Shown here piece by piece: positions 4,137-29,941 of a stretch of 64,000 bases of DNA. Positions within the stretch are counted from its first letter, which is position 1, and the number at the start of each line of letters is the position of its first letter. The stretch lies in contig JBEPZV010000002.1 of assembly GCA_041640655.1 (NCBI GenBank), positions 1-64,000 on the forward strand, in the 5' to 3' direction. Source of the stretch: a bacterium. GTDB taxonomy: Bacteria; Acidobacteriota; Blastocatellia; HR10. Below the pieces are notes generated by a model. The model saw only the letters and a list, made by a program, of their open reading frames with translations. It was not told where the DNA came from and ran no database searches. The translations under genes were made by a program, and so were the position numbers.

Positions 4137-4149
4137 ACCCTCCACCTCC

Positions 4150-4983: not shown

Positions 4984-5009
4984 AGCTGCACCTCTTCCCC
5001 GGCGCGGGA

Positions 5010-6272: not shown

Positions 6273-6288
6273 CGCGTCCTCCCCCCGC

Positions 6289-10024: not shown

Positions 10025-10942
10025 TCACTCGGGCTTGCTCAAACCGTAGCGCCGCAGCTTCCGATAGAGCGTGCGCACGCCGATCCCCAACTCCCGCGCA
10101 ACGGCGGGAAGGTCGGCATGGCGCTTGAGCGCTTCAGCCAGAAGCTGCGCCTCGAAACAGGCGAGCTTCCGGCGCAAGGTCGCCTCCCGCAAGACCTCCG
10201 GTCTCGGACATCGCGCGAGGATATGGTCCGGCAAATGCTCGGGTCGCACCTCCTCGCCATCTACTCGCGCCAGGGCATACGTGAGGGCGTTCCTCAGTTC
10301 CCGCACATTCCCCGGCCAGGGATAGCAGAGCAACAGCTCCCATGCGGCCGGGGAGAGTCGCACCGAGATGCCCGCTTCGGTCAGGAAATGATGGACGAGC
10401 GCCGGGATGTCTTGCGGGCGCTCGCGGATCGGAGGGATCACGTAGACGAAGATGGAGAGGCGGTAGTAGAGATCGCGGCGGAATTCCCCGCGCTCGACCT
10501 TCTGCTTGATGTCCGCGTTCGTGGCCGCAATGAAGCGCACATCAATCGGACGATCGCGCGCGCTGCCCAAGGGGCGCACCCGTTTCGTCTCGATCGCGCG
10601 CAGCAGTTTCGCCTGCGCGTCCGAGGGGATCTCCACGACCTCATCGAGGAAGACTGTTCCCCCTTCGGCCTCCTCCAAGAGCCCCTTGCGACTCCGCGTC
10701 GCGCCGGTGAAGGCGCCGCGCTCGTAGCCGAACAGCTCGCTCTCGAGCAGATGCGTCGGGATGGCCGCGCAATTGATGGGGAGGAACGGACGGGCACTTC
10801 GGCGCGATCGCTCGTGAATGTACCGAGCGAGCACCTCCTTCCCAACCCCCGTCTCGCCCAGAATGAGCACGGCCTCAGAGCTGCGCGCGGCGATCTCAGC
10901 ATCGCGGAAGATCTTCTCCAATGATCCGATGACGACCTCCAC
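10025..10942 (-). CDS. Sigma-54-dependent enhancer-binding protein lacking an N-terminal sensory domain
   Basis: GETGVGKE Walker A, ESELFG, GAFTGA, FLDE, WPGNVREL, C-terminal Fis-type HTH; GTG start with AAGGGGAGG RBS. Confidence 0.92.
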   Translation of the reverse strand: MEVVIGSLEKIFRDAEIAARSSEAVLILGETGVGKEVLARYIHERSRRSARPFLPINCAAIPTHLLESELFGYERGAFTGATRSRKGLLEEAEGGTVFLDEVVEIPSDAQAKLLRAIETKRVRPLGSARDRPIDVRFIAATNADIKQKVERGEFRRDLYYRLSIFVYVIPPIRERPQDIPALVHHFLTEAGISVRLSPAAWELLLCYPWPGNVRELRNALTYALARVDGEEVRPEHLPDHILARCPRPEVLREATLRRKLACFEAQLLAEALKRHADLPAVARELGIGVRTLYRKLRRYGLSKPE

Positions 10943-11023: not shown

Positions 11024-11440
11024 TCACCGATCCGAGGATGCGCGCGCGACGCTCTCAGTGACGATCACGCGCCCGGCCATCGCCATGTGTTCGGGCGAAC
11101 ACCACACGGTGCAGTAGAACGGGAAGACGCCCGCGCGATCGGGCGTGAAGTCCACCACGTGGACCTCGCCGGGCTTGATCTCCGCGACGCCGATCCCGAA
11201 GTCCGGGAGCGCGAAGCCGTGCGAGACCGTCTCCACATTGCGGATCTTCAAGCGCACAGGTCGGCCTCGCTCCAATCGGATCTCATTCGGCTGCCAATTC
11301 CCGTTCTTCGGTTGAATGGCCAAAAGCTCGATGACTTCGCGCCCGGCGTCGCGATGGCGATCGTACCAGAGCGCGGCGACGACCGTTCCGACCGTCGCTA
11401 GCACAGCCAATGCGACGGCGAGCGCTTCTTGCCGTCTCAT
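11024..11440 (-). CDS. Membrane-anchored CuA-type cupredoxin
   Basis: N-terminal TM helix; H-x35-C-x3-C-x3-H-x2-M (SHGF...YCTVWCSPEHMAM). Confidence 0.85.
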   Translation of the reverse strand: MRRQEALAVALAVLATVGTVVAALWYDRHRDAGREVIELLAIQPKNGNWQPNEIRLERGRPVRLKIRNVETVSHGFALPDFGIGVAEIKPGEVHVVDFTPDRAGVFPFYCTVWCSPEHMAMAGRVIVTESVARASSDR

Positions 11441-11453
11441 CGCTCTCCCCTCC

Positions 11454-12932
11454 TCATCCGACGAAGAGCCACAACAGTCCCAAAGTCGTGGCTCCCAAGA
11501 AGCCGAGAATCGGAAACACCCCGCGCACGGCTGCCCCTGGCTCCGCGAACGTCTGCCGCGCGATCTTGAAGGCGATGTCGATCGAGAAGAGCAGGCCGAT
11601 CAACAGCGTCAGGATCATCAGATACGGCATGAGCCCGGTGAGCACCGGCGTCCAGGGGAAATGCGCCGTCCCGAACAGGTCCCACCCCCACGCGAACGGA
11701 TCGGAGAGGACATGCAGGAGGTAGCTCCCATTCGGCAGGATGATGCCGAGGCTGAAGGCGATCCACGCGGCCAATCCCAAGGGCACCGTGGCGTAGGAGA
11801 AGTTCACATAGACCTTCTTCAGCGGCACGGACTGACGAGCCGCGCGTCGCGCCCCCCACACGAAGAGGAGGAAGATCGCGGGCAGAACGAGCAGATTCCA
11901 ACCCGCGTGCAGACCGATGAAGGTCAGATACCCGGAGAGCGTCGCCGCGTTCGCCCAATCTTTGAGCGTCCCCCACGGCCCCTGGAACGTCGTGAAGAAG
12001 ACGATGGCGATCCCCAGCATGATGAGCGCTTTGTACGCCTCATCCAATCCGCGCTTCTCATCCACGAGCAGGTCCACTCCCGGCGGGCGCAAGTTGACGG
12101 CCATGTTGTCGTATTCGCACGTCTTCAAGCACTCGAAGCACATGCCGCAGTAGGTGTTCCGGCGAAAGGCATAGGGCAGCAGCAACCACGGACAGCCATA
12201 TCCCCGCTCATTGCCCACGACGCACCCTTTCTGCTTGTGTCTGGCGCAGATCTCGGGATCCTTCACCCGCACCTCCGTGAGCGCGAAATTCGAATAGAGC
12301 CCCTGGAAGCCGCTCACCGGACACACGTAGAGGCAGAACGTCCGCGCGCGATAGATGAGCGAGAGCACGACCGAGAGGGCGATGATCGCCGCCAGGAGCA
12401 CGAACGTCGCCGCCGGTCGCACGGTGAAGAATCCCGAGGCGAAGGTCGTCGCCAGAAAGAGAATGTTCATGAGCCACATGTTCGAGAGCGATTTCGGCCA
12501 TCGCTTGTTCAAGCCGAAATAGGGATTCCGTCCCCTCTCGTACCGGACGCTGAACAGCCGCAGCCGCTGCAGCCACTCGCCCAGAAACGGCAGCGGGCAC
12601 ATCGTGCACCAGAAGCGCGAGAGCACGGGCACCAGCACCGTCATCAGGAGCACCCACCAGAGGATCCACACGATCATGATGCCGAAGTTGTAATTGCCCG
12701 GCGAGGTCAAACCGCCGAAGAATCCGGCCATGAGGATGACGGTGAACAGGAAGACGTTGAAGAGGATGAGCGCGAGCGGCATCCAGCGACTCTTGAGGAG
12801 CCGCCGGACCCACGGGAATCGCGTCAGCTCAAAGCGCCACGTTTCCGGAATGAGCCCCAAGATGTATCCCTCGCGCATATCCCCGACCTCCTCAATGGCG
12901 AATTCGGGACGCCGCGCCGTGATCTCGCTCAC
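11454..12932 (-). CDS. NapH/NosR/FixG-like polytopic membrane 4Fe-4S protein
   Basis: Many TM helices; WCTMCP, FCLYVCP, GYGCP and CGMCFECLKTC motifs; GTGA overlap with the upstream gene (alternative ATG at 12878). Confidence 0.85.
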   Translation of the reverse strand: MSEITARRPEFAIEEVGDMREGYILGLIPETWRFELTRFPWVRRLLKSRWMPLALILFNVFLFTVILMAGFFGGLTSPGNYNFGIMIVWILWWVLLMTVLVPVLSRFWCTMCPLPFLGEWLQRLRLFSVRYERGRNPYFGLNKRWPKSLSNMWLMNILFLATTFASGFFTVRPAATFVLLAAIIALSVVLSLIYRARTFCLYVCPVSGFQGLYSNFALTEVRVKDPEICARHKQKGCVVGNERGYGCPWLLLPYAFRRNTYCGMCFECLKTCEYDNMAVNLRPPGVDLLVDEKRGLDEAYKALIMLGIAIVFFTTFQGPWGTLKDWANAATLSGYLTFIGLHAGWNLLVLPAIFLLFVWGARRAARQSVPLKKVYVNFSYATVPLGLAAWIAFSLGIILPNGSYLLHVLSDPFAWGWDLFGTAHFPWTPVLTGLMPYLMILTLLIGLLFSIDIAFKIARQTFAEPGAAVRGVFPILGFLGATTLGLLWLFVG

Positions 12933-13426
12933 GACTCCGCCGAGGGCGCGGCGCGATCCTCGGCGAGCTCTCGCACGAAGAACGCTTCGTGCTCGGCCTC
13001 GATCTCCGCCAATTCGCGAAAGAGCGCGCGCAAGGCGGCCTCCTCCACGCGCTCGGCTGACTCCATGTAGAACGCTCGGGCGCGACGCTCGGCGAGCAGA
13101 CCGACCTCCAGCGCCTGACGCCGCCGCACCCGGTCATACACGAACGCTTCGCCATCCTCGAAGATGGGCGCCTCGACCAGCTCCCGAATGTCCTCATCGG
13201 TGAGGTCGCACGTCGCCTCCCCATATCGTTCCGCGTACATCGCGTGCAGACGTCGGCCATGCTCGCGCTCCTCGCGCGCCATCTCCCGAAATGTCTGCGC
13301 GACGTCCGGCTCATACCACTCGAACATCTCCGCGTAGTTCTCGTAGATTCGGGCGTTTCGCTCCTCGATCCAGATGGCGACCTTCAAGACTTCCGGCGGC
13401 GACAACTCCGCGAGCGAACGTCTCAT
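12929..13426 (-). CDS. Ferritin-like / rubrerythrin-family di-iron protein
   Basis: AIWIEE...Y, EEREH, AE...FY and EAEH four-helix di-iron ligand pattern. Confidence 0.85.
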   Translation of the reverse strand: MRRSLAELSPPEVLKVAIWIEERNARIYENYAEMFEWYEPDVAQTFREMAREEREHGRRLHAMYAERYGEATCDLTDEDIRELVEAPIFEDGEAFVYDRVRRRQALEVGLLAERRARAFYMESAERVEEAALRALFRELAEIEAEHEAFFVRELAEDRAAPSAES

Positions 13427-13439
13427 AGCGGCGTCCTCC

Positions 13440-13904
13440 TCACGATCCCGAGCCGCGCGTCCCGACGGCGACGAACGCCGCGCCGAAGAGCGCGAGCACG
13501 GCGCCCGTCGCTCCCCAGAACCGATAATCCGGCTCGACCTTGAGATACCCGATCATGTACGGATGAAAGGCACCACACGTGACCGAGCAGCGGAAGGCGA
13601 ATTTTCCCGTCCGATCGGCCACGAAGCGCACGACGCCGTCCTGCCCCGGAAGAGCGCTCGTCTGCACCTCGTAGCCGTCCAGATACAACCCATGGTGCAC
13701 GTCTTCGCTCACCAGACGAATGGTGACGACGTCACCCCGACGGACGCGCACGATGTTCGGCGTGTAATGGAAGCGTCGGGCGACGATGGTGACGGCCCGT
13801 TCTTCTCCTCGAGCCGGCCACCAGGCGAGCACCACGGACGCGAGGAAGAGCATCATCCCTGCTCCGAGAAGGACTGCGCCCACGCGTCTCAGTGTTCGGA
13901 TCAT
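13440..13904 (-). CDS. CuA-type cupredoxin (cytochrome c oxidase subunit II-like domain) with N- and C-terminal hydrophobic segments
   Basis: DVHHG...H-x34-CSVTCGAFHPYM; ATG at 13904 with AGGAGG RBS (alternative ATG at 13919 overlaps the upstream stop). Confidence 0.85.
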   Translation of the reverse strand: MIRTLRRVGAVLLGAGMMLFLASVVLAWWPARGEERAVTIVARRFHYTPNIVRVRRGDVVTIRLVSEDVHHGLYLDGYEVQTSALPGQDGVVRFVADRTGKFAFRCSVTCGAFHPYMIGYLKVEPDYRFWGATGAVLALFGAAFVAVGTRGSGS

Positions 13905-13915
13905 CACCCTCCTCC

Positions 13916-14803
13916 TCATCTCCCTGAAGCACCGGCGGGGACTTCGGTCGGCCACACGCGCAGCCGCACCCATCCGGTGATGGATTTGCGCGCTCCGCGA
14001 TCCCCCTTCGCCCCATCCCACACGGCGAAGGCGACCGCGCGTGTTCCTCCAACGGGCAACGCGGCTTCGTCAGCCGCTCCATCGGCGGCCAGCGCGCGCG
14101 TGAGGATCACCGTCCACACCCCCTTCTTCCAGAATCCTCGCCCCTGCACGCGCTGATGCGCGCGCGGGGTGAGCGTCCCCACGCCGCGCGCGACGAGGTC
14201 CTCGACGGCCGAGGGCATCGGCTCGGTCGTGATCGGAAAAACTTCGCGCGGTTCGAAGGGGTAATAGTAATCGGCATAGGGGCGCTCGGACTGAACCCTC
14301 GCCGAATCCCCTCCCCACACCTGCGCATCTCGCGCGGCCTTCCACGCCCAGATGTTCGCCCCTTCCAAGAATCCCATCATGATCGTATTCGGCTGCGGAT
14401 TCTCCACCAGCGGCAGCATGACGGCACACGCATCCGAGAACACATCGCGCCCCAGTTGGCGATCCTCCGTTGGATCCCGCCACTGAAGGCGGAAGAAGAT
14501 GCGCTCGCCATTATGAAAGGCCGCGACGGTGACCTCCGGCACGCTCGCTCTCCCCCAAGGAATGGCCGTCACTTGAGGCGCGAGTGGGAACGTCTTGCTG
14601 GGAACCTGCTGCCAGATCGGATCCTCGGCCCCCCGTTCGCTCAACTCGACGCCCCGTTCCAGATACGGGACGTCGAGCGTCTCCATCGGCTGGTCGGCTG
14701 CCGGAGGAAACGTGCGATAGCGAAAGAGCGCATAATACGACCCGACCAGGAAGAGACTCACGACGAGTCCGATGAGTCCGACGATGACGAGCGTCCTCCT
14801 CAT
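13916..14803 (-). CDS. Heme-b gamma subunit (ethylbenzene dehydrogenase/DOMON-like; NxrC-like)
   Basis: N-terminal TM; FRLQWRDPT, FSDACAVMLP, IMMG, AFAVWDG...RGARKS; ATGA overlap with the chaperone gene. Confidence 0.82.
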   Translation of the reverse strand: MRRTLVIVGLIGLVVSLFLVGSYYALFRYRTFPPAADQPMETLDVPYLERGVELSERGAEDPIWQQVPSKTFPLAPQVTAIPWGRASVPEVTVAAFHNGERIFFRLQWRDPTEDRQLGRDVFSDACAVMLPLVENPQPNTIMMGFLEGANIWAWKAARDAQVWGGDSARVQSERPYADYYYPFEPREVFPITTEPMPSAVEDLVARGVGTLTPRAHQRVQGRGFWKKGVWTVILTRALAADGAADEAALPVGGTRAVAFAVWDGAKGDRGARKSITGWVRLRVWPTEVPAGASGR

Positions 14804-15624
14804 GGCTCCGCCCCTCCTTCCGGGATCGCCCATTGGCGAAACGTCCGGGAATACCCTGCGGACACATCGCCGCAGGATACGGACCAGGGACATGTGCCCC
14901 CCCCATCATCCGCGTCGTCGCATGACATCGGCGCCAATCCCCCCGTCCCTGAGGGCACCCCCCACCGCGCGCATTCCCGCTCGAGGAATCGCTCCAGCCA
15001 CGCGAGCATGCGACCGTAAAATCCCCCTTCGCCCGCGCCGACCTCACGGGCGCGACGACGCACGGCGCGAGCGAGCGCCGGGACCCAAACGGCGAGATGA
15101 TCGCGCAGGAAGGCGCGCTCGGCGTCCTGCGTGACGCGAAGATGCTCGTCGTCATCGCGCGCGCGCATCTCCTTGAGCGCGAGCACGTACATGAACTCCA
15201 ACTCCACACTGAGGTGATCGGGCCGTTCGCGCGCCGGCTCCATCCCGAACGCGCGATAGAATCCGTTGAGATCGGCCAGAATCTCCACCCACTGGAACTC
15301 GTGCGCGCCTCGATACATGGCCTCGTAGAGCGGCACCCCCCTCTCCAGATGAAAGAGGGCATGATAAGTGCTCCCGAGCCGAGCGATGTCGCCCGGGAAC
15401 TCCGCCGAGCGCAGATACGCCGCCATCTCTTCCACGAGCGCCAGCTCCAAGCTCGTGGAAGCCGTCGCGAATCCGGCGAGCACCTCGGGCAATTCCGGAT
15501 CGCGAAAAACGTCCACCACTTCCGGCGAGGGATAGAGGAAGGCCAGCGAGAAGACTCGATACAGGCCTCCCCGCATCGAGGCCTCGCTCATCGCACGTTC
15601 GCTCCGGTGCTCGGCGTCTCTCAT
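14800..15624 (-). CDS. TorD/DmsD/NarJ-family molybdoenzyme maturation chaperone
   Basis: LYRVFSLAFLYP, FYRAFG, ERPDHLSVELEFM, FLRDHLAVW; start may be 15624 or 15591. Confidence 0.87.
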   Translation of the reverse strand: MRDAEHRSERAMSEASMRGGLYRVFSLAFLYPSPEVVDVFRDPELPEVLAGFATASTSLELALVEEMAAYLRSAEFPGDIARLGSTYHALFHLERGVPLYEAMYRGAHEFQWVEILADLNGFYRAFGMEPARERPDHLSVELEFMYVLALKEMRARDDDEHLRVTQDAERAFLRDHLAVWVPALARAVRRRAREVGAGEGGFYGRMLAWLERFLERECARWGVPSGTGGLAPMSCDDADDGGGTCPWSVSCGDVSAGYSRTFRQWAIPEGGAEP

Positions 15625-15625
15625 C

Positions 15626-16759
15626 TCACGTGATGCTGAAGCGATAGACCTGATGGCGTTCATCGTAGAAGGGTCGCACATGAACGGGCTCCTTGATCGG
15701 GACCTTCACCAGTTCCACCCCCTGCTCGTTGTACCCATAGGCGAATCCGTCCTTGACCTTGAAGCGGTGGATGATGAAGGGCGTGCTCCCGAAGAGCATC
15801 AAAAGCCCGATGAGCGTCTGATCCCCCTCGCGCGCCGCCTTCAGATACGTCTTCACCGCCTCCTCGGCGCGCGGGCCGAAGAGCATCGTCGTGAAGCTCG
15901 TCGGGACGTTGACCGGCGGGATGTAATAGACGTTCGGCTCGGTCCCGAACTGCGGATAGAGGGGCAGGGCGACCTTGCGCACGTGCACCAGATAGTCAAT
16001 GGGATTATCCTCGCGCGCCCGATCCGGCGTGCTCACGAAGCCCATCAGCCGGATCTTGCCGATGCAGGTGACGACGCATTCGGGCTGAAGGCCCTGCTCG
16101 ACCTTCGGATAGCAGCCGATGCACTTCTGCGTCTTGCCCAGGGCTTGGTTGAACATCACCTTCTTGTAGGGGCAGGCGCGGATGCAGTCTTGATAGCCGC
16201 GGCAGCGAATCTGATCCACGAGCACGATGCCGTCTTCCGGCCGCTTGTAGATGGCCTTGCGCGGGCAGCCGGCCAGACAGGCCGGATACGTGCAGTGATT
16301 GCAGATGCGCTGCAGATAGAACATCCACGGCTGATGCGGGATGCGAATGTACTGCCCCTGCTGAACCGGCGCGCTCACTTCGTCCTCGCCGATATTCGGA
16401 TACGACCAATCCTCTCGTTCGGGCATGATGCCCAGGGCGACCTCGCCCGGCGGCGCCGCCTCGAAGATCGTCTTGCCGCGATAGACGTCGCCCTCCCACT
16501 CCTGCACGCCGAGCCGCTCGAGCAATCGCACGTCCCAGCCGAGCGGATAGAAGCCCCAGGGCTTGGTCTCGACGTTGTTCCAGAACATGTACTCCTGCCC
16601 ATGCCCCGAAGTCCACGCGTTCTTGCAGGCGATGGTGCAGGTCTGACAGGCAATGCATTTGTTCGTGTCGAAGACGGCGGCGAACTGCCGCTTCGGTCTT
16701 GGCGCTTCGTAGGGATAGGACATGTCGCGCCCGAGTTGCCAGTTATAGACGTTGGCCAT
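15626..16759 (-). CDS. nxrB: Fe-S beta subunit of Nitrospira/anammox-type nitrite oxidoreductase / periplasmic nitrate reductase
   Basis: VYNWQLGR.M.YPYE N-terminus, CIACQTCTIAC, QEYMFWNNVETKP, CNHCTYPACLAGCP, CRGYQDCIRACP, KCIGCYP; ATG at 16759 with RBS. Confidence 0.85.
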   Translation of the reverse strand: MANVYNWQLGRDMSYPYEAPRPKRQFAAVFDTNKCIACQTCTIACKNAWTSGHGQEYMFWNNVETKPWGFYPLGWDVRLLERLGVQEWEGDVYRGKTIFEAAPPGEVALGIMPEREDWSYPNIGEDEVSAPVQQGQYIRIPHQPWMFYLQRICNHCTYPACLAGCPRKAIYKRPEDGIVLVDQIRCRGYQDCIRACPYKKVMFNQALGKTQKCIGCYPKVEQGLQPECVVTCIGKIRLMGFVSTPDRAREDNPIDYLVHVRKVALPLYPQFGTEPNVYYIPPVNVPTSFTTMLFGPRAEEAVKTYLKAAREGDQTLIGLLMLFGSTPFIIHRFKVKDGFAYGYNEQGVELVKVPIKEPVHVRPFYDERHQVYRFSIT

Positions 16760-16867
16760 ATCCTTCTCCTTTCCACCTTCTGACGCGCAATCGGATGCCG
16801 CCCGCACCGCGCGGCCAAATGGCGAAGCGCGTCGCACCGTTCGCGCGAAATGACCCCTTCACGCCGC

Positions 16868-19800
16868 TCATCGCTTCCTCACGAATTCGCCGTTGAGGAA
16901 CCGGCGCATCGCTTCGCTCTCGTAGGTTGGGCGCAAGCCCAATCGCGCCGGCCGCCAGAGGCGCTCTTTTTCGAGGCCGCCATCCTCGGCTTTGGTGATC
17001 TTGACGAACGACTCTTTGGGCGCGCCCACGGTGCAGTGAATGTCCGGAGCGAAGCCCTTGCCGATCGTCTGCCCGAAGACGTCTTTGCGCACCAAGCTGT
17101 CGGTCATCAAGGTGGGCCGGAGCCAGGCGCGCGTCGCCGATTGGTGACTGCCGTAGCGAAACATCGCTTGATAGCCCGTGCGCGGGTTGCGGGCCAGATG
17201 ATCGGGATTCTTCTCATGCCCCTCGACCGAACCATAGGTGGCCGCGTACATGTGGAACCAGGAGCGCGCGATCCGCGGTGGAATCCCCTGGTAATAGCGC
17301 GCCCGGAGCATGCACCGCGAGAGCTTGTACGCTTCGGTCCCCGCTCGCCATCCGCGATAAGGGCGATCTTCGGGATCGCCATCAATCCACACGTAATCGC
17401 CGTCCTCGATGCCGAGCGCCTTGGCGTCCTCGGGATTGATGTCCACGTAGCCCTCGCCCACCCACGGCTTGCGCCGATCGCGCCGATAGGGATCGCCGAA
17501 CGGCCCGAACCACAAGGCCATCAGATCCGTGTCCACGGGCGTCGTGTGCACGCCGTGCCGATACTTGGGCGTGATGTAGACGTGCGTGAAGCCGCGCCGC
17601 GCGAGCGGATGGCGGCTCCGCACGACCTCCTCCACCGCGCGCACGACGTTGCGCACCTGCCGCACCTCGACCGAGAGATCCTCGCGCGAGAGCCCATAGG
17701 CCTCCGGAGGCGAGGGGCGAATCGCCGGATGCGGACGATTCGCGACGATCACGTTCGGCTCGTGCAGCGTCCCATCCACCGGCTCGCGATAGACCGGGAT
17801 CGCCTCCCCGTGCTCGAGAAATTCCGGCTCGGGCCGATAGTATTCGAGTCGTCCCGTCTTCGTGTACCAGGGCTTGCTCTCGTTCGTGTGCTCCCAGCCC
17901 ATGATCTTCGGATACGTGCGCGTGAGGATGAGCGCCGGGATGCCCTCTTTGGCCTTCGCCTCCAGCTCTTCGATCCTGTAGCCGCGCGTCGTCGTGCTCG
18001 CATTGATGATCCGCTGCAGGTAGACTTCGACCCGGCCCTCCTTGACGAACCTCCAGTAATCGGCAAACCGCGCGTCCCCGGTCAGCTCCGCGAGCTTCCC
18101 GCTGACTCCCGCGCAGATCTCGATGTCCGAGCGCGTGTTGTGCAATCGCGGCAACGGCGTGCGCGGGAAGACTTGAAGGAAGGGATTCGTCACCGACGCC
18201 GTGATGTCCGGATACTTGAACTCGGCCCACGAATCCACCGGGAAGACGATGTCGGCATACTCGCACGAAGCCGTCCACCACCAATCCTGCACGAGGATCA
18301 TCTCCACCTTCGGGAGCGTGTTCACCACGACGTCGTAATGCCATTTGATGTTGCCGAGGATCGAATTCGAGTTGGCGAACCACATCGCCTTCGTGGGCGT
18401 CGGCAGGTGCGTGCGCCCGGTGAAGAGCTTATTGCCGATCCGCAGCGGGCGATCGCCGTAGTTGAAATAGTGCGCCGATTCCATCTTGTAGTATGACTTC
18501 ACGCGCGCCGGCTGCGCCGGATCCAGCTCGATGTCGAAGGGATCCTCGGCGATGAACTGCGGATTGCCGTTGAAGAGGGCCGAACGATAATTGCCCGCAT
18601 AGGAGCCGATGTTGCCGCCGTGCACGCCGACGTTGCGCGTCAGCGCGCAGATGAGGAAGATCGCGCGGTCCTTGAGATCGTTGTTGAAGAAGTGATTCGG
18701 CCCCATGCCGACGGCCACGAGCGTCCCGGCGCGAAATCGCGCCAGATCCCGCGCCAGATTGACGATCGCCTCTTTCGGCGCCCACGTGAGCTTCGAGACC
18801 GAATCGGGATCGAAGCTGTCCAGGACGTACTGCTTGATGAGGTCGAAGACGGGCCGCACGCGCACGCGCCGACCATCTGCGAGCTGAACCTCGAACTCGC
18901 CTTCGAGCGCCGGGTCTATGCCCTTCTTCTTGAAATGCTCGCCCACATCATCGCGCGTGATGACGACGGGCTTGCCCGTCTTCACGTCCCACACGGTGAA
19001 GTCGCCCCATTCGTCGCGCAAGCCCTCGGAGATATACTGCGCCTCCTGGCGAACGGGCGGCGGCGCGCTCTCGCCGGGTCGCAGCACCTTTGTGTTGTTC
19101 CGAAGCGGAGCGGGTCGGTAACTCGGGATGATGTCGGAGGCCTTCAGATGCTCGAGCGTATCCATGCGCACCAGCAGGGGCAAATCGGTGAAGCACTTGA
19201 TGAACTCTTCGTCGTAGAGCTTCTCCCGGATGAGGACGTGCGCGATCCCCAAAGCGAGCGCCGCATCCGTGCCCGGGCGAATGATGATGATCTCGTCGGC
19301 CTTCGAGCACGTCGAGGAATATTCGACCGTGACGGCGACTACTTTCGTCCCCTTGAGCCGCGCCTCCGTGAGCCAATGGGCATCGGGCATCTTCGTGGAG
19401 ATCCAATTCATGCCCCAGCAGATGACCATGCGAGCGTTCTCGGCGTCGCACAGATCGAACTCGACCGTCTGCTGTCCGGTCACCATGGGGTGGCCCGGCG
19501 GCAGATCCGTGTGCCAGGAGTAGCTGTCCCAGCCGCGCCCGCCGAGCGCGCGATCGGGCCCGACATTGCGCAGCTTCGCATCCAGAAGCGCCAGCGCGTT
19601 GGCCAGACGATAGAGCGCCATGATGCGCACCGTCCCCAAAAGAGGCATCCCGCCGCGGAACTTGAGCGTCTGTGTGCCGGCGCCCTTCATCGCTTCGATC
19701 ATCGCTTCGTCGTACCCTTGCGCGCGCAGGAGGCGAGCGCCGCGCTCGCCCGTGTAGGTCCGGGCGATGTTCAGGAGCGCGCGCGCGGCCAGATCGAACG

Positions 19801-20368
19801 CCTCGTCCCAGGAGACCTCGATCCACTCGTCCTTGCCGCGCTGGAACAACTCGCGAGGCGGGCGCCCCAGAGCGTCGCGCGGGAAGCCGCGCTCGACCCA
19901 CGCCTTGAAGCCGCGCCGCACCATCGGCTGCCGGCACCGCCTCGGCCCGTAGATGCGCCGCAACAGAGCCAAGCCCTTATTGCAGCACCGCGGATCCCAG
20001 CGCGCCGAGGCCGCATTCCCGTAGAGATCGGTCGCCCGACCGTAGCCGAAACTCGGCCCGATGCGCACGATGACGTTGTTCTTCACGTAGGCTTTGAGCA
20101 AGCAGTTGTGCGTATCGTTGGGCGCGCACAGGAAGTGAAACGTGCTGTCGTAGCGGTAGACATCGCGATACAGCCGCTCCCAATCGCGACTCGGGTAGTG
20201 CTGGAACGGATCCACGATCTCATCGCTCGGCTGAAAGAGCGAGAGGCTCGGACGGCACGCGGCCTCGGTGGCGGCGAGCGCCGCGAGGGTGAGGAACGCG
20301 CGGCGCGTGACCTTCGAGCCTCCGCGCTCGGATCGGTCCACTGCCCTGTGTTCACTCCGCTCGGCCAT
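16868..20368 (-). CDS. nxrA: Tat-exported Mo-bisPGD alpha subunit, NXR/NAR-like (type II DMSO reductase family)
   Basis: TRRAFL Tat signal; FS0 motif CAPNDTHNC...C (C-x3-D-x3-C); WHTDLP Mo-ligand Asp; FRYGSHQS...[16 protein letters not shown]-terminus as in Nitrospira-type NxrA. Reaction direction unknown. Confidence 0.85.
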
Positions 20369-20393
20369 ACCTCCCCTCCTCAGAGGCGATGCC

Positions 20394-22262
20394 TCAAAAT
20401 CGGTAGCTCAGCATGGTGTAGGCGAAGGAGACACTGGCCCCGGGCGCGGCACGAGTGAGGAAGCGTCCGGGGAAGAGATGCGCATATCCGGCAGCAAGCG
20501 AGACCCTGTAGGGAAGTGCGATTCGTACGTCCACATCCACCTCTTGCCCCACATGCGTGGGGAGGACTGCTCCGTCAACGGGGCGGAGGCGCGCGATCGG
20601 CGCTCCTCCAGCCGAGTAGAGGGCATCGCGAGGGCTCGCCAACCAGAACGAATGATAATCCACCTGCGTCGTGATCCGAGGCCTCAGCCTCAGCTCCATG
20701 CCCAGTCGAAAGTTGCGCATATTCTGCCAGCCCACCACATCGGCGATCCCGTACTTGTCGTGATTGGTCGGATAGAGCTGATCGAACGTCTGACGCCGCC
20801 CATCCTGAGGGTCGCGATCTCCCGAAGCCTGGTTGTACTCCACAAGCACGCGAGGGCTCAGGCCAGCGGGCCTTATCCGATACCCCAGTTGCGCATGCAT
20901 GGCCCAGGCGCGCACCACGTCATTCCCCCATCGCCCCCACTGTCCCGCCGTCTCCAGGCGATAATCCAGCGAGGCGGATATTGTCCCCGCCCAGCGCGTT
21001 CCCACCGTGAAGACATCCGCATCTCCACGCTCGCCGCGCTCTCCCACCACGCGGGGTCGCGTCCGCCACAGCGCATATCCCTCCAAAGCCCCACCGGGGA
21101 TCACATTCTGAAACGATCCGTAGAGGCCGTAGAGATTCTCTCCCGCTCGATGGGTGTTGAACGCTCCATCCCGAATGATCACGACTGAGGCCGCGAAGAG
21201 ATCAACCCGATACTGAGGTCGGGCATAGAAGAATCGCACGGCATCAAAACTGCGCGCCGTATTTCCCCAGTCGAAGGCTCCCAGCAACCGCTCATCCCCA
21301 AAGCGCAGCTCCTGCCGCCCAAGTCGCAGTCCCCATCCCTGCCGGTTCCGATCGAAGATCTCCACCATCGCCTGCCGCAGGTCGAACGTATCCTCCACAA
21401 GCGGTGGATCGGGCTCGCCCCGAAAGCCCACGGCCTGCGCATCCTGCCCCTGCAACAGGACACGCAGCCAGTGGGTTGGACGGGCTTCCACTCCGATCCG
21501 CACTCGCGTCAGCACATACCCGTCCTTCTCTCCCGCCCGCACTCCGCCACCGAAGAGTTGCCCCCCTCGCCATTCCCACCGAAGGCGCAACTCCCCATGC
21601 ACCGTGAACCCTCGCTCCGTTGATCCCGCGCGGCTCTGTCCTCCTGTTACCCCCCCGCGCTCTTGCGCCCGCGCCTCTCCCCCTGCTCCACCACTCATCC
21701 CCCACAGCAGCACGAGCATGATGGCTTTTCCCTTCGACCACGCCCGCAGGCGCGCCGCCGCCCGCCGACGGTCAGCGCGGGTGAAGATCTTGGGGATCAG
21801 TCGGAACAACACGGCTTCTTCCTTCTCGATGTGGACCCGCAAGAACTCCCGTAATCGTCTGGCGCTTGACAGGACGGCATCGGCGGCGCCGGCATGCTCC
21901 GACTCGCGCTGCGACCATGCGAGGACTGCCTGTGCGAACTCTCGAATCATCTGCCGCAACTCCTCGTGTTCGAACTCAAGGGCCGCGACCGGCCCGCCGA
22001 TCTCATTCAGATCCCGCCCCACGGGCGGGAACAATACCTCCTCTTCGAGCCTCAGGAGATCGTACACCTCTTGGGTGAAGAACCTGACCAGCTCCTCAAG
22101 CACCGCCGTCCCTGGAGGGCACGCCGAATCGCGACAAGCCGTCCCACTTTTCGCGCCGCCTTCCATCGTGCGAAGGACATCCTCCAAGAGGGCCAAGTGC
22201 CGATGGATCTCGGCGTGACGCCGCGCGATCTCAGTGATGGCTTCCGAATGCGCCTCGTTCAC
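20394..22262 (-). CDS. Hemerythrin-like domain fused to alginate-export (AlgE-like) outer-membrane beta-barrel
   Basis: N-terminal H...EEEVLFP, EHEE and [10 protein letters not shown] hemerythrin motifs; internal signal-like segment; [22 protein letters not shown]...[10 protein letters not shown] and terminal YRF barrel signature. Start approximate (22262-22280). Confidence 0.8.
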
Positions 22263-22290
22263 GTTCACCCCCCGACGCATAGTGTGACCA

Positions 22291-22306
22291 AGCAAGCATC
22301 ATACCA
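22291..22306 (-). promoter_or_regulatory. Sigma-54 (-24/-12) promoter for the hemerythrin-porin/nxr operon
   Basis: Minus strand TGGTATGATGCTTGCT: TGG-N10-GC with TTGCT. Confidence 0.7.
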
Positions 22307-22381
22307 GAACGCGGAAATCCCCACCCCTTGAAGAAACGATGGCGATTCAAGGTGTTGCCCGAAGGAAGGGGAACACCCATG

Positions 22382-22417
22382 GTTGCACTCGGATGCCCCC
22401 GCGTTGCATTTTGCAAC
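22382..22417. promoter_or_regulatory. Candidate enhancer: palindrome plus half-site
   Basis: GTTGCA-TTT-TGCAAC perfect dyad at 22403-22417 and a second GTTGCA 21 bp away at 22382. Confidence 0.5.
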
Positions 22418-22582
22418 ATCTCTCCTTTGACTGGAGAAGCTAACGATCGCAACATTCGGCTCCCCCGAGGTCGCACCCGTTCACGGAGCGACCTTGGGAT
22501 GCTCTTGCCTTCCCAGGACCGCTTGGGTATTTTCATCGCGTGCAGATCGCTGGTGAGCAGAATGCGAGGGCATAAAGGGCGT

Positions 22583-23158
22583 ATGGACGCGACCATGCTC
22601 GAGGCCGAGGTGAAGATCCCCGTGGAGAGAAACCCCCTTGATGGCCACGCGGAACCGGACGTGCGCGTGGTGAAGCCGCGCCATTTTGAGGAGAATTGGG
22701 TGCTCGATTTCGAGGACGAGCGCCTTCGGCGTTCCGCGAGCTTGCTGCGCATCCGTCGTGTGGGGGAGCGCGGGACGATTACCTTCAAGGGACCACCGCA
22801 GGCCCATCCATCGCTCAAGGTGCGGGAAGAAGTGGAGACGGAAGTCGCCCATCCGATGCGCGCGCTCGCGATCTTTGAACGGCTGGGCCTGCGGCCGATC
22901 TATCGCTATCAGAAGTATCGAACTGAATATCGCGTGCAGCTCCCTTCGGGAGCCGCGCTCTCGGTCATGTTCGACGAAACGCCGATGGGGAATTTCCTGG
23001 AGCTGGAGGGAGACGAGAGAAGCATTTGGGAATTCCTCCACCGATTTCACCTGGAGGAGAAGCCGCTTCTTCGCGCGAGCTATCCAACGCTCTACGCCGA
23101 ATTTTGTCGAGTCCGGGGCAAACCCTTCGGGGATATGCTCTTTCCGGAGACCGAGTAG
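22583..23158 (+). CDS. CYTH-domain protein (class IV adenylate cyclase-like)
   Basis: EAEVK, LLRIRR, ITFKGP, REEVET, YQKYR, DETPMGNFLELEG. Confidence 0.88.
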   Translation: MDATMLEAEVKIPVERNPLDGHAEPDVRVVKPRHFEENWVLDFEDERLRRSASLLRIRRVGERGTITFKGPPQAHPSLKVREEVETEVAHPMRALAIFERLGLRPIYRYQKYRTEYRVQLPSGAALSVMFDETPMGNFLELEGDERSIWEFLHRFHLEEKPLLRASYPTLYAEFCRVRGKPFGDMLFPETE

Positions 23159-23170
23159 AGGGAGTGTCCG

Positions 23171-24136
23171 ATGCGCGCGATGATCCTGGCTGCCGGGTTG
23201 GGCACGCGACTCTGGCCGTTGACGGCCGATCGGGCCAAGGCCGCTGTTCCCTTCCTCGACAAGCCGATCATCGCCCATCTCCTCGAATATTTGCGGCGGT
23301 ACGGCATCACCGACGTGATCATCAATCTCCACTATCAGGGCGATTCCATTCGCCGCATCGTGGGCGATGGCTCCAGATGGGGCGTGCGCGTCTTCTATTC
23401 CGAGGAGCCGGAGATCCTGGGAACCGGAGGCGCTCTGGATAAAGTGCGCCATCTGCTCCAGGGCGGAACCTTTCTGGTCATCAACGGCAAGATCATCACC
23501 GACATTGACCTGCACGCCGTGTGCGAGGCACATCGGCAGCGAGCGGCTCTGGCCACGCTCGTGCTCATGAGGAACACTCGGCGTGAGCGCTTCAGCGTCG
23601 TCGAAGTGGATGGCGATGGCTGCATCGTGCGGTTCGGCGGCATGCCTCCCCCCTTGACCGAAGAGGCGCCGACCGATCACGCTCCGCTGCTCTTCACGGG
23701 CATTCAAGTCGTCGAGCCCGAGATCTTCGAGTTCATCCCGCGCGGCGCGTTCTCCCACACGACTGTAGACGTCTATCCGCGAGCCATAGCGTGCGGACGC
23801 CGGATCGCCGCCTATATCGCGGAGGGACAATGGTACGAGCTGAGCACGCTCGAACGCTACTTGAACGCGAGCCTCGCCTTCCTCCGTCGCGAAGGGCGAT
23901 CCTTCATCGCCGGCACTGGGACGATCATCGAAGAAGGAGCGAAGGTCACCGAGAGCGTCCTCTGGGCTCGCGTCCGCATCCCGAGATGCGCGCGTGTGCA
24001 TCACTGCATCATCGGCGATGATGTCACGCTGCCCCCCGGAAGCGATCTCACGCGCGTCGCGGTCGTCCGCGCTGCTATCTGTCCATCTCCTCACAGAGGG
24101 ACCGTCGTGGGGGAGAACCTCATCGTCCCGTTCTGA
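23171..24136 (+). CDS. NDP-sugar pyrophosphorylase (mannose-1-phosphate guanylyltransferase family)
   Basis: AMILAAGLGTRLWPLT, LGTGGAL, C-terminal hexapeptide-like segment. Confidence 0.9.
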   Translation: MRAMILAAGLGTRLWPLTADRAKAAVPFLDKPIIAHLLEYLRRYGITDVIINLHYQGDSIRRIVGDGSRWGVRVFYSEEPEILGTGGALDKVRHLLQGGTFLVINGKIITDIDLHAVCEAHRQRAALATLVLMRNTRRERFSVVEVDGDGCIVRFGGMPPPLTEEAPTDHAPLLFTGIQVVEPEIFEFIPRGAFSHTTVDVYPRAIACGRRIAAYIAEGQWYELSTLERYLNASLAFLRREGRSFIAGTGTIIEEGAKVTESVLWARVRIPRCARVHHCIIGDDVTLPPGSDLTRVAVVRAAICPSPHRGTVVGENLIVPF

Positions 24137-24213
24137 GCAGATCCCCACCAAGCTCCTGAAAGGAGAGAGCTTCCATTTTCTCGTGCAAAATTTCAAGGAC
24201 TCGTCCTCGGATC

Positions 24214-24254
24214 TTCCAAAATCCTGGAGGGAATTTCCGAGTTTCTGGAAACTC
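24214..24254. promoter_or_regulatory. Tandem candidate enhancer sites upstream of the TBDR
   Basis: TTCC-N8-GGA at 24214 and 24235 (21 bp apart); overlapping dyad GAGTTTC-TG-GAAACTC at 24239-24254. Confidence 0.45.
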
Positions 24255-24325
24255 GCCCAATCGAGCGCCCGCGCTCCCTCCAGCCAACCCATTGAGAAGC
24301 AAGGAGTAAAGGAAACGAGGGGTTT

Positions 24326-24341
24326 GGGCACACCCCTTGCT
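24326..24341 (+). promoter_or_regulatory. Sigma-54 (-24/-12) promoter of the TBDR
   Basis: GGGCACACCCCTTGCT: GG-N10-GC, near consensus, about 63 nt before the ATG. Confidence 0.78.
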
Positions 24342-24404
24342 TGAAAAAGCCGTGGCGGTCTTCGCTGAAGGCCGCTGAGATTCAAGGAAGGAGGTGGGAG
24401 TGCG

Positions 24405-27400
24405 ATGAAGCGCGTCATGTCATGGGTGATCATGGCGAGCTTGACGTGGGCCTTTGGGATGAGCGCGACGAAGGCGCAAACGATCCTGGGATCCATCTCA
24501 GGAGTCGTGACCGATCCTCGTGGGGACCCGATTCAGGGGGCGACGGTCACGATCAAGAACGAAGAGACGGGGCTCACGCGCATCCTCACGACGAACGAGA
24601 CGGGATTCTATCGCGCGGACTCGCTCCCGATTGGGGAGAACTACACGATCACGGTGGAGCATCCAGGGTTCAAGAAGGAGATCCGCACGAAGATCGCGGT
24701 GCGCGCCGTTGCGATCACGCGTGTGGATGTCCAACTGCAAGTGGGAGAGATCGCGGAAGTCGTCGAAGTGACAGCGGCAGGGGCGGAGCTCCTCGAACGC
24801 ACCGAGGCGCGCGTGGCGAAGTCCATCCAGAGCCGACAGGTCTTCGAACTGCCGGGGCGGAATACGCTGACGGGCCTGGCCCTGCTGGTCCCGGGGACCG
24901 TCCCCAATGTCCCGGGGATGCCCGGCTCCGGCTTCGCCACAAGCGGCGGACGCTCGCGCTCGAACAACTTCAATTTGGACGGCTCCAACAACAACGACGA
25001 TTCGCTTTCGATCCCCCGCCAGACTGTTCCGCCTGAGGCAGTCGCCGAGTTTCAGATCGTGACGAACAACTTCAATGCGGAGCAGGGGCGCAATTCCGGG
25101 GCTGTCGTCAACGTCATCACGAAGTCGGGGACCAATGAGTATCACGGGACGCTGCACTGGACGTGGGCGGGCAACGGACTGAATGCGCTGACGCTCCAGC
25201 AAGAGCGCGTCTATCGCGGGGCCTTGCAACAAGGTCTCCCGAAACACCAGGCCCTGCGTTCGGCGAAGAATCCGACAGTGGAGAACCTCGGGGGATTCAC
25301 CCTCGGTGGTCCGATCCGAAAGGAACAAACCTTCTTCTTCGGCTCGTATGATTTCGACCTCCTGCGCAGCACTATCGGATCAGCGGCGCGCAACGCGATC
25401 ACGCGCGAGGGGCTGGACCTGATTCGAGCGAACGCGGCGGCTCAGGGGTTCACGCCGGAAGCCATTGATTTCCTCGCGAACACCTTCCCCGTGGCCAACG
25501 ATTTCTCGACGCGATTCAATGTCAACGTGGCGGCTCCCGGGCAACCTCCACTTCTGATCCCCTTCGCCCGCTTCAACCGAGGGTTGGTCGAGACGCTCAA
25601 GTACGAGACGAACTTCCATCGGTTCCTCGCGCGAGTGGATCACCGCTTCGGCGAGAAGGATCAGCTCTTCGGTCGCTACCTCTTCGATGACAGCGACGAT
25701 CCGGGGACGCCCGCCTCGCTGCGGGGACAAGAGATCGGCACGGCCGTGCGGAATCAGAGCCTGACGCTCGTCCACACGCATGTCTTCTCGCCGCGCGCCG
25801 TGAATGAATTCCGCTTCGCCTACAACCGCCGGGCCATCACCTTCCCCCTGGGGGAGACCGTCCGCCGCTTCGGAGCGTTCTCCATCGGTGGGGTGGGCGG
25901 AGCGTTCACCCTCGGGAACATCAACTTCCCGCAGTTCCGTACCGACAACATCTATCAGTACGCGAACAAATACACGTTCACGTTCGGACGCCACTCGCTG
26001 CGCGCGGGCGTGGACATCCGCCGCGTGCAGTTGAACTCCTTCTTCGCGCCGATTGTGGACGGGCAAGTGACCTATCCGAACCTGCGCGCTTTCCTGCGCG
26101 ACGAGAACGCCACGTTCAACCAGTATGCGGGCGAAGCGTATGTCCCCAGCCGGTTGACCGAACTGGGCGCCTTCTTGCAGGACGATCTGCGTCTCACCCC
26201 CAACCTGACACTCAATCTCGGGATCCGCTACGAATATACGGGGACGCCCTTCCAGTACTTCTCCAACGCGAAGCCGGACATCAACAACTGGGGGCCACGC
26301 TTCGGCTTCGCCTGGAATCCGAAGACCGAGCGGACCGGATTCTGGGGATGGCTCACCGGCGGCGACCGGCTCGTGCTCCGAGGCGGATACTCGCTCACCT
26401 ACGACCAGATCTTCCAGAACGTCCTGCTCAACACCTCGCGGAATTACCCGCGCGGCGTTCAGGTGGCTCTCGGGCCGATCTCCGGTCAGCGCCTCTTCCT
26501 CCGCAGCAATTGGCCATCGCCGCCGACGCCCCAAGACTTCGTGCGCTTGGGCGGAAACCCGGACCTACTGCCATATCGCTACTTCTCCCTCAACAAGCGC
26601 GTCAGCCAGCCCTACACGAACCAGTACAGCCTGACCATCCAACGACAGTTCCTGAACGACTACGTGCTCAGCATCGGATACGTGGGCACGCGAGCGCTCA
26701 AACTGATCCGCGAGTACGAGACGAACATCGGGTTCTTCAAAGCGGCCGTGGACCGGAATCCATCAGTGTATCAGAGCGTCCTGCCCTTCTTGCAGTTGAC
26801 GACGCGAGGGGGACAACCCGTATATCTGCGCGATCCGGCGCGCGGCTCGATCTTAGTCGGCGATGGACACGCGCAGTCCTGGTACAACTCGCTGCAGATC
26901 TCCGTGGATAAGCGACTGAGCCGCGGCCTGCAATTCGGCGCTGCGTACACTTACTCCAGCTACATCAGCACGAGTGACGACATCCTTGGGGCCTGGCTCG
27001 CGCAAACGCTCCCGGCCAACCCCATCAACGCGCGGTTGGATCGCGGCCGCTCCATCTACGATCGTCCACACCGGCTCGTGATCAACTACGTGTGGGACAT
27101 CCCCGGATACCGGGGCGAGAGCGGGTTCCTGCGGCAGACGCTCTCCGGATGGCGACTGTCCGGGATCACCACGTTCCAATCGGGGACGCCTTATTCGGTC
27201 TTCAACAACAACAATGCGCTCGGCATCCTGCCCGGTCAGATCACGACCATCGCCTTCTCGCAGCGCGTCTCGATCAATCCGAACGGCGATCCACTGCTCG
27301 TCACGGGCGTCGGACCAGACGGCCGTCCGATCAACCCCAACGCCTACTGGATCGTCCCCGGGACGAACTCGGGAATCGTGGGGAATTCCGGGCGGAACCG

Positions 27401-29927: not shown

Positions 29928-29941
29928 ACGTCCCCCCTCCT

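Follow-up and report, generated by a model that had tools for sequence, protein, structure and literature searches.

The operon considered here raises a question of direction: does an outward-facing molybdoenzyme of the nitrite oxidoreductase (NXR) lineage, encoded by a thermophilic acidobacterium, reduce nitrate or oxidize nitrite? The operon lies in a stretch of 64,000 nucleotides (nt) of contig JBEPZV010000002.1 (assembly GCA_041640655.1; the window hereafter) and comprises nine tightly packed open reading frames (ORFs) on the minus strand, running from 22280 down to 11024 behind one predicted sigma-54 promoter. In 5' to 3' order they specify a hemerythrin-porin protein, the enzyme's alpha and beta subunits, a chaperone, the gamma subunit, cupredoxin A, a rubrerythrin-like protein, a NapH-like protein, and cupredoxin B. 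With the starts that we picked, the successive junctions measure 25, 108, about 1, 0, 0, 13, 0, and 13 nt, so that "tightly coupled", the wording of an original prediction made from the sequence alone, is a fair description of this single-strand run. Every sequence item that the prediction reported as seen was located in the window. The features of the locus are as follows.

22404..22416, minus strand: palindrome TTGCAAAATGCAA of the TTGCA-N3-TGCAA type, with a further TGCAAC about 20 nt downstream
22291..22306, minus strand: predicted sigma-54 (-24/-12) promoter TGGTATGATGCTTGCT, from a motif scan of the window
20394..22280, minus strand: hemerythrin-porin ORF, 628 amino acids (aa); in Pfam, hemerythrin followed by alginate-export porin
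21735..22280, minus strand: hemerythrin (HHE) domain at the N terminus of the first ORF (PF01814, 60.5 bits)
21666..21734, minus strand: internal Sec-signal-like segment linking hemerythrin and porin in frame, with no stop codon and an AxA|Q-type site
20394..21665, minus strand: outer-membrane beta-barrel porin of the alginate-export family (PF13372, 225.6 bits, E 1.2e-66)
16868..20368, minus strand: alpha, NxrA/NarG-like catalytic subunit of the molybdenum-bis(molybdopterin guanine dinucleotide) (Mo-bisMGD) type, 1166 aa (Pfam Molybdopterin oxidoreductase; 1013.6 bits to 7b04_B)
15626..16759, minus strand: beta, NxrB/NarH-like iron-sulfur (FeS) subunit, 377 aa from MANVYNW (Pfam 4Fe-4S dicluster; 383.5 bits to 7b04_A)
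14800..15681, minus strand: TorD/NarJ-type maturation chaperone (PF02613, Nitrate_red_del, 69.1 bits; TIGR03482 88.4, cutoff 152.3); its start is uncertain, and 15624 is compatible with translational coupling
13916..14893, likely start 14803, minus strand: gamma, heme-b subunit with EB_dh domain (PF09459, 115.9 bits)
13440..13919, minus strand: cupredoxin A, membrane-anchored, CuA type (COX2, 28.9 bits)
12929..13426, minus strand: rubrerythrin/erythrin-like di-iron protein (PF02915, 59.3 bits)
11454..12932, minus strand: NapH-like polytopic FeS membrane protein (Fer4_5, 22.7 bits, cutoff 22)
11024..11440, minus strand: cupredoxin B, membrane-anchored, CuA type (Cupredoxin_1, 45.9 bits; COX2, 22.9 bits)
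10025..10942, minus strand: gene of a 305-aa sigma-54 enhancer-binding protein, 81 nt after the operon (Sigma54_activat, 219.1 bits; HTH_8, 38.4 bits)

The enzyme class is indicated above all by the alpha subunit. Searched against all solved structures with HMMER alignments, alpha matched NxrA of Kuenenia stuttgartiensis (7b04_B) at 1013.6 bits with residues 19-1164 aligned; the next-best solved matches were PcrA (207.5 bits), Escherichia coli NarG (141 bits), and EbdA (124.7 bits). Alpha carries a twin-arginine translocation (Tat) motif, TRRAFL, at residues 21-26 (a predicted export signal), the FS0 cluster motif C81-x3-D85-x3-C89 completed by C129, the putative Mo ligand D288 within WHTD, and the substrate Asn N84. 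In the alignment, C81, N84, D85, C89, C129, and D288 fall on C67, N70, D71, C75, C115, and D275 of the Kuenenia protein, where C67, D71, C75, and C115 ligate FS0, Asn70 contacts the substrate, and Asp275 binds Mo (Chicano 2021, PMC8387239). The curated NCBIfam models all scored far under their cutoffs (TIGR03479, 332.5 versus 984.75; narG, 171.5 versus 1084), and public records therefore name these proteins only "molybdopterin-dependent oxidoreductase".

The other two subunits point the same way. Beta begins with MANVYNWQLGRDMSYPYE, contains TIACK, and scores 383.5 bits against Kuenenia NxrB (7b04_A); after its start it has 15 Cys, the number needed for three [4Fe-4S] clusters and one [3Fe-4S] cluster. 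The FeS clusters other than FS0 are described as all-Cys and apparently conserved in NXRs and nitrate reductases (Chicano 2021, PMC8387239). Gamma scores 76.9 bits against Kuenenia NxrC (7b04_C), and its M173 and K303 align with M155 and K305, the heme-b ligands Met155 and Lys305 of that protein (Chicano 2021, PMC8387239). The PF09459 domain and the NxrC alignment together argue for an EB_dh-type heme-b subunit with Met/Lys ligation, predicted to have one N-terminal hydrophobic helix (residues 34-52). NxrA similarity, Tat motif, Asp-type FS0, Mo-ligand Asp, substrate Asn, and EB_dh gamma thus occur together, and by its sequence alpha is a member of the periplasmic NXR/periplasmic nitrate reductase (pNAR) lineage of type II dimethyl sulfoxide (DMSO) reductases. 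The original prediction had placed the enzyme in the periplasmic Nitrospira/Nitrospina/anammox lineage rather than with cytoplasm-facing NarGHI on the strength of the Tat signal, the C-x3-D-x3-C motif, and the Asp ligand of alpha and of the start of beta; all of these are present, and the scores of the three subunits support the placement against NarGHI, EbdA, SerA, and PcrA alike. Branching of alpha with EbdA, DdhA, or SerA, which the prediction had named as an outcome that would overturn it, does not occur, because structure scores and aligned ligand residues point to Kuenenia NXR. An EbdA/SerA/PcrA-type enzyme was also considered and ruled out on the structure-match scores.

Where in this lineage the enzyme belongs was addressed with a FastTree phylogeny (LG+gamma; 1145 columns; rooted on E. 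coli NarG) of 55 alpha sequences. These are E. coli NarG, the alpha of the window, 21 proteins from the database, and the alphas of 32 loci; L031, L035, L038, and L039, in which alpha is truncated, were excluded. The window groups with five near relatives (support 1.0), and this clade is sister (support 0.95) to a metagenome protein, P0002, that is 74% identical to the window alpha. Both are nested in a 45-leaf clade (support 0.97) that includes Methanoperedens, Thermoguttaceae, Omnitrophota, Planctomycetota, Elusimicrobia, and Bipolaricaulota. Within this NXR-lineage clade alpha stands next to Methanoperedens (66.5% alpha identity), with a weak inner node (0.52) joining the two. Kuenenia was placed by proxy, through the 7b04_B scores of three members of a tree that includes no named nitrite-oxidizer NxrA: P0124 scores 1590 bits, P0122 1060, and Methanoperedens 876, against 1013 for the window. 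The Kuenenia-proximal P0124 is 42.5% identical to the window alpha and branches outside its clade, so that, by this proxy only, alpha does not fall inside the recognized nitrite-oxidizer/anammox clade. No named NxrA of Nitrospira, Nitrospina, or Brocadiales occurs among the best 120 matches to the window alpha or to P0124, and the cluster names of ten representatives point to Gaiellaceae, SAR202, Tectimicrobiota, Thermincola, Obscuribacterales, Halorussus, and Ammonifex.

The original prediction had suggested a sister clade for another reason, namely that beta keeps Cys in TIACK where Nitrospira NxrB has Asp. Tree, identities, and proxy scores do place the enzyme beside, not inside, the Kuenenia-proximal branch, and this part of the claim stands. 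The Cys-versus-Asp argument is not supported: it relies on the Asp of the Nitrospira motif SMADK, the clusters other than FS0 are described as all-Cys (Chicano 2021, PMC8387239), and Kuenenia NxrB itself has Cys at the equivalent place (TMACK). Published trees agree with ours, which makes "sister clade" correct on grounds other than the original ones. In one, the NXRs of anammox bacteria, Nitrospirota, Nitrospinota, and Nitrotoga share a major clade with Methanoperedens BLZ1 and Thermogutta terrifontis, both of them nitrate reducers (PMC10732223); in the other, of NarH/NxrB, HR08_01540 and HR10_01705 stand beside Methanoperedens and an Omnitrophica sequence (Kato 2018, PMC5877337).

The enzyme type is widespread. 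A protein database search scored 8000 candidates, of which 3358 qualify as relatives at E <= 1e-20; identity to the window alpha is 63-92% in the best 120, whose named sources include Omnitrophica, Planctomycetota, Elusimicrobia, Bipolaricaulota, Dehalococcoidia, Abditibacteriales, and Spirochaetales. Scanning one genome per species gave 36 loci, which were then searched with the window proteins by tblastn. The nearest are those of Bacterium HR10 (96%; 96.4% for alpha), HR08 (94%), an Acidobacteriota metagenome-assembled genome (MAG) (93%), a Blastocatellia MAG (92%), and a Clostridia-labeled MAG (88%); six Methanoperedens records match alpha at 63-66%. Seven core genes are complete in 16 of the 36 loci, a Thermoguttaceae MAG among them, and the remainder are divided as follows.

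Full seven-gene core, 16 of 36 loci: L004, L006-L008, L014, L017, L019, L020, L023, L025-L030, L036
Partial core (contig end or one gene undetected), 4 of 36 loci: L005, L013, L035, L039
Alpha and beta only, with or without chaperone and gamma, in the available locus DNA: 16 of 36 loci

This core is that of the Methanoperedens nar operon, NarG(Tat)-NarH-NarJ-Orf7-HCOII-NapH-HCOII, all genes of which are reported to be highly transcribed in a nitrate-reducing methane oxidizer (Arshad 2015, PMC4683180). Judged by gene content and order, the seven genes of the window are this "unusual Nar" operon type, which is known and widespread, and the suggestion of an undescribed system is not borne out. 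The synteny search did recover all nine genes plus the activator gene in L004. Hemerythrin was found in four loci, the porin in five, the rubrerythrin-like gene in five, and a close activator in four, all among L004-L008; the hemerythrin-porin ORF, the rubrerythrin-like gene, and the sigma-54 control are a genus-specific accessory set.

The host is a thermophilic hot-spring acidobacterium of the class Blastocatellia, belonging to the GAL08/HR10 group, with a genome of 3.13 Mb (63.7% G+C, 89.8% complete). HR08 and HR10 are Acidobacteria from reactors run at 65-70°C (Kato 2018, PMC5877337), and GAL08 has been equated with the GTDB order HR10 in Blastocatellia (Ruhl 2022, PMC8787282). Near-identical DNA was found in 20 runs from 16 studies with hot-spring or sediment metagenome labels, six of which are possibly its source; none of the 24 runs listed is an RNA run with this DNA. 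Alpha is present in five of the six other searched species of the genus at 88-96% identity, and a homolog (E <= 1e-50) occurs in 24 of the 61 searched genomes of the class, that of the window included; in more distant class members it is mostly 59-63% identical. An NXR-type enzyme is therefore ordinary for the class. Moreover, the narGH/nxrAB cluster of the HR10/GAL08 lineage has already been published (Kato 2018, PMC5877337; Ruhl 2022, PMC8787282), which disposes of the view that this is an organism not expected to have one.

The original prediction also credited the operon with its own porin and its own electron-transfer genes, and the Pfam scan bears this out. Both cupredoxins have a C-x3-C-x3-H-x2-M motif and exceed the Pfam cutoff of 22 for COX2 (28.9 and 22.9), which suggests CuA centers. 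Cupredoxin A has hydrophobic helices at both ends, and orthologs 50-62% identical stand at the corresponding place in loci of Methanoperedens, Omnitrophota, and Planctomycetota; the Methanoperedens counterpart is labeled "HCO II" (Arshad 2015, PMC4683180). Cupredoxin B combines the CuA motif CTVWCSPEHMAM with an N-terminal helix. The NapH-like protein has eight hydrophobic segments and the Cys motifs CTMCP, CLYVCP, and CGMCFECLKTC (classes CxxCP, CxxxCP, and CxxCxxCxxxC). Its nearest Atlas clusters carry Fer4_5, it matched no NCBIfam family at E <= 0.01, and a 63%-identical ortholog was named NapH (Arshad 2015, PMC4683180). Presumably, it is the entry or exit point of electrons on the quinol side. 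The rubrerythrin-like protein is similar to MbfA over the N-terminal domain of the latter (positions 1-149 of the profile; 86.4 bits, cutoff 450), and its gene was detected by tblastn only in the five closest of the 36 loci, L004-L008. The Pfam scan of the operon revealed neither a tubule-forming subunit nor cytochrome c genes.

The promoter, TGGTATGATGCTTGCT, is the sole match to TGGYAY-N5-TTGCW in the 64 kb, where 0.07 are expected by chance; one or more matches turned up in 7 of 100 shuffles. At the equivalent place, GGYAY-N5-TTGCW is found in all four relatives whose operon opens with the hemerythrin ORF, as the same site in L004 and as GGCAT/GGCAC-N5-TTGC variants in L005, L006, and L008. 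The unique match and its conservation uphold the promoter claim of the original prediction, and the GG-N10-GC promoter together with the adjacent enhancer-binding protein gene would make this a sigma-54-dependent operon. TTGCA-N3-TGCAA recurs about 85-120 nt upstream of the promoter in five of six sequences (the window, L005, L006, L007, and L008), and L004 has one mismatch to it; this palindrome is probably the upstream site of the sigma-54 activator. The activator, kept at 80-98% identity in L004, L006, L007, and L008, has AAA+ and helix-turn-helix (HTH) domains only and no sensor domain, and its best NCBIfam match, NorR, covers profile positions 200-511 only, i.e., the AAA+ and HTH part.

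The first ORF of the accessory set is unusual. The hemerythrin domain has a weak likeness to YtfE/RIC (23 bits, far under the cutoff), and no stop codon separates it from the porin in the window, L004 (8070-9974), L005 (3049-4953), L006 (7681-9984), or L008 (8116-9984). Both Pfam domains also occur, likewise without an intervening stop, in eight database clusters of 603-628 aa that are 63-96% identical. Among the porin homologs in the protein database, 98 of 106 are porin-only, including all of the more distant ones, and one of these matches, P0442, retains a degenerate hemerythrin remnant. The segment between the domains has the form of a canonical Sec-type signal with an alignment-conserved AxA|Q-type site; the product might be cleaved here, or translation might start internally. 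A single frame combines a cytoplasmic-type di-iron domain with an outer-membrane barrel. A separate observation concerns L007, the 88%-identical relative, where the hemerythrin is replaced by a 608-aa ORF before the porin (1281-3107, plus strand) that unites two heme-c motifs (CxxCH) with an EB_dh-like domain and ends in a C-terminal helix. This protein resembles the "alternative NxrC" described for Nitrospina (Lucker 2013). A search of the genome of the window for an ortholog of this dihaem cytochrome c-EB_dh protein matched the gamma subunit alone.

We propose that this periplasm-facing enzyme, which would interconvert nitrate and nitrite on the outer side of the membrane, probably works as a respiratory nitrate reductase. 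Under low oxygen, the sensor-less activator would switch the promoter on, and nitrate would enter the periplasm via the porin. Electrons from quinol might then travel via the NapH-like protein and the CuA cupredoxins to heme b of gamma, and from there through the FeS clusters of beta to the Mo site in alpha; there, on the outer side of the inner membrane, nitrate would be converted to nitrite. Sensing or buffering of O2, nitric oxide (NO), or peroxide may fall to the hemerythrin domain and the rubrerythrin-like protein. Nitrite would be the end product, since family models found no nitrite reductase in the 89.8% complete genome. Nitrate reduction is favored because relatives of known physiology reduce nitrate, because no RuBisCO was found, and because the lineage has been interpreted as heterotrophic. 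Thermogutta terrifontis, which is in culture, appears in a list of nitrate reducers with a NarG in the NXR clade (PMC10732223), and the paper on its genome deals with nitrate-supported anaerobic growth and with one deep-branching NarG; the cluster in the lineage itself was read as the dissimilatory nitrate reductase of a facultative anaerobe (Ruhl 2022, PMC8787282). The RuBisCO large subunit was not found in the genome at its 89.8% completeness, which fits a heterotroph. The search for ATP-citrate lyase, which also gave no match, carries no weight, since its control matched none of 14 control genomes.

Several points weigh against this assignment and in part favor the same enzyme running mainly as a nitrite oxidoreductase in vivo, which we regard as unlikely, though worth serious attention. 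It would then oxidize nitrite in the periplasm and deliver electrons via heme b and the CuA cupredoxins toward aa3-type cytochrome c oxidases, for lithoheterotrophic energy gain at 65-70°C or more. No enzyme of this subclade is known to have been purified; the direction in Methanoperedens was deduced from physiology and transcripts (Arshad 2015, PMC4683180), and Kuenenia NXR, the solved relative, is described as bidirectional (PMC10732223). The path of electrons through the cupredoxins is our inference, and the NapH assignment is weak, with Fer4_5 just above its cutoff and no NCBIfam NapH match. NirK, NrfA, NirS, and NosZ were not found over the cutoffs of their family models in the 89.8% complete genome, so that nitrate respiration would stop at toxic nitrite. 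The terminal oxidases point to aerobic life, as only aa3-type ones were found: two of them, besides two distant heme-copper oxidase homologs. The enzyme belongs to the NXR lineage, faces the periplasm, and is encoded with two O2-related di-iron proteins. The NXR clusters of Kuenenia, Nitrospira, and Nitrospina likewise share two conserved cupredoxin-like copper proteins (Lucker 2013), which means that the copper proteins do not tell the direction. In favor of a nitrite oxidizer, ammonia-fed reactors produced nitrate at 70°C over a period exceeding 4 years with no known nitrite oxidizer, and their authors concluded that some Nar/Nxr genes serve to oxidize nitrite (Kato 2018, PMC5877337). HR10 far exceeded all other nar/nxr carriers there in abundance, with a coverage of 62-136x at 70°C after more than 1400 days, while the other MAGs listed with narGH/nxrAB reached at most 25x; in reactor 70B it even exceeded the ammonia oxidizer HR04 (49-52x there, 49-242x in the 70°C reactors overall) (PMC5877337). 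Yet this ecological evidence is indirect, coverage is not activity, Fe(II) was also fed to these reactors (Kato 2018, PMC5877337), and the genome of the window is that of a relative of HR10, not of HR10 itself. The nearest relatives with known physiology reduce nitrate, and the Kuenenia-proximal proxy P0124 lies outside the clade of the window. To the missing RuBisCO may be added that the table of Kato et al. lists no complete carbon-fixation module for HR10 (PMC5877337), and the HR10 genus was dominant in decaying wood at 74°C, where it was read as a heterotroph. Our literature search found no paper naming HR10-group Acidobacteria as nitrite oxidizers.

A substrate other than nitrogen oxyanions is very improbable. 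The enzyme would in that case reduce chlorate, perchlorate, or selenate, for respiration or detoxification; PcrA, a type II DMSO reductase relative, is indeed the second-best solved match at 207.5 bits, and no curated family fixes the substrate, all NCBIfam models being under their cutoffs. Nevertheless, Kuenenia NXR scores five times as high as PcrA, the substrate Asn (N84, Kuenenia N70) and the Asp-type FS0 are retained, and the orthologous operon is that of an expressed nitrate reductase in Methanoperedens (Arshad 2015, PMC4683180). The Pfam scan detected no gene for chlorite dismutase or a similar partner in the operon.

The two distant heme-copper oxidase subunit I homologs in the genome are observed at 22282-23912 of contig C26 (plus strand) and at 6203-7543 of contig C11 (minus strand), with 173 and 191 bits to COX1 in open frames of 685 and 776 aa; a CuA-like gene precedes one of them. 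Both may be nitric oxide reductases, in keeping with the norB recorded for HR10 (Kato 2018, PMC5877337).

Respiratory nitrate reduction remains our preferred reading, and the direction of the enzyme is the point at issue. HR10 being the most abundant carrier in nitrate-producing reactors at 70°C, the lineage is a concrete candidate for thermophilic nitrite oxidation. In its boldest form, which we find doubtful, the proposal is that GAL08/HR10 Blastocatellia oxidize nitrite with this enzyme type at 65-70°C or above and are the unidentified nitrite oxidizers of hot nitrifying systems, and that the hemerythrin-signal-porin ORF is new in kind. If so, Acidobacteriota would be added to the nitrite-oxidizer phyla and the known temperature range would be raised; the ORF, for its part, would offer a new route to a cytoplasmic sensor and an outer-membrane channel from one frame. 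The enzyme type and the gene kit themselves are already known, and the direction in these thermophiles is the key question. Whichever way it runs, recognition of a widespread enzyme type that is routinely labeled only "molybdopterin oxidoreductase" gives a dominant hot-spring lineage its correct annotation. The genus-specific additions, i.e., the in-frame hemerythrin-porin ORF, the rubrerythrin-like gene, and the sensor-less activator, bear on enzyme supply and control.

Other genes of the window lie on either side of the operon. Upstream and on the opposite strand, after CYTH-domain and nucleotidyl transferase genes, is the gene of a 1087-aa outer-membrane protein (24405-27668, plus strand) with CarboxypepD_reg and OMP_b-brl_4 (457 bits) domains. 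Antisense to the CYTH and nucleotidyl transferase genes runs a 671-aa ORF without a family match (22481-24496, minus strand), most likely a spurious frame of high-GC DNA. A second molybdoenzyme, of the xanthine dehydrogenase/CO dehydrogenase family, is represented by genes for its large and FAD subunits at 29064-32263 (minus strand). At 3261-7437 (minus strand), two BcrAD_BadFG ATPase genes and two HGD-D genes are followed by those of a short-chain dehydrogenase and an amidohydrolase. This is a module of the 2-hydroxyacyl-CoA dehydratase/benzoyl-CoA reductase type, and such modules are usually found in anaerobes.

Among known systems, E. coli NarGHI is the most remote. It shares with the window the Mo-bisMGD family, an FeS beta subunit, and a NarJ-type chaperone, but NarG is only 27.4% identical to alpha, its FS0 is His-type rather than Asp-type, it has no Tat export, and NarI is replaced in the window by the EB_dh heme-b subunit. 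A cytoplasmic NarGHI was ruled out on this identity, the Tat motif, the Asp-type FS0, and the lack of NarI. All three subunits of Kuenenia NXR-ABC (PDB 7B04, PMC8387239) align full length with those of the window, and both enzymes share an FS0 with three Cys and one Asp, the Mo-ligand Asp, the substrate Asn, and Met/Lys-ligated heme b. Kuenenia NXR nonetheless belongs to a different subclade, as the far higher 7b04_B score of P0124 than of the window (1590 versus 1013 bits) indicates; unlike it, the window gamma has a membrane helix, and the operon is devoid of tubule-subunit and cytochrome c genes.

Closer still is the nar operon of Methanoperedens, with seven genes in the same order, a Tat-exported alpha, and a common clade at 0.97 support; in L020, identity to the window is 66.5% for alpha, 66% for beta, 63% for the NapH-like protein, and 48-54% for the cupredoxins. 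The window differs in the rubrerythrin-like gene inserted between cupredoxin A and the NapH-like gene, in the hemerythrin-porin ORF in front, and in the sigma-54 promoter and sensor-less activator, none of which was found in the six Methanoperedens loci. The hosts differ as well, an aerobic bacterial heterotroph with an outer membrane on the one side and an anaerobic archaeon on the other. The nearest described organisms are HR08 and HR10 (Kato 2018, PMC5877337) and GAL08 (Ruhl 2022, PMC8787282), which form a genus-level lineage with the window genome (alpha identity, 94% in HR08 and 96% in HR10). The available text of both papers gives no account of the NapH-like/CuA chain, the porin, the single hemerythrin-porin frame, or the sigma-54 control. 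The complete arrangement recurs in L004, which has all nine genes and the activator at 90-99% identity to the window.

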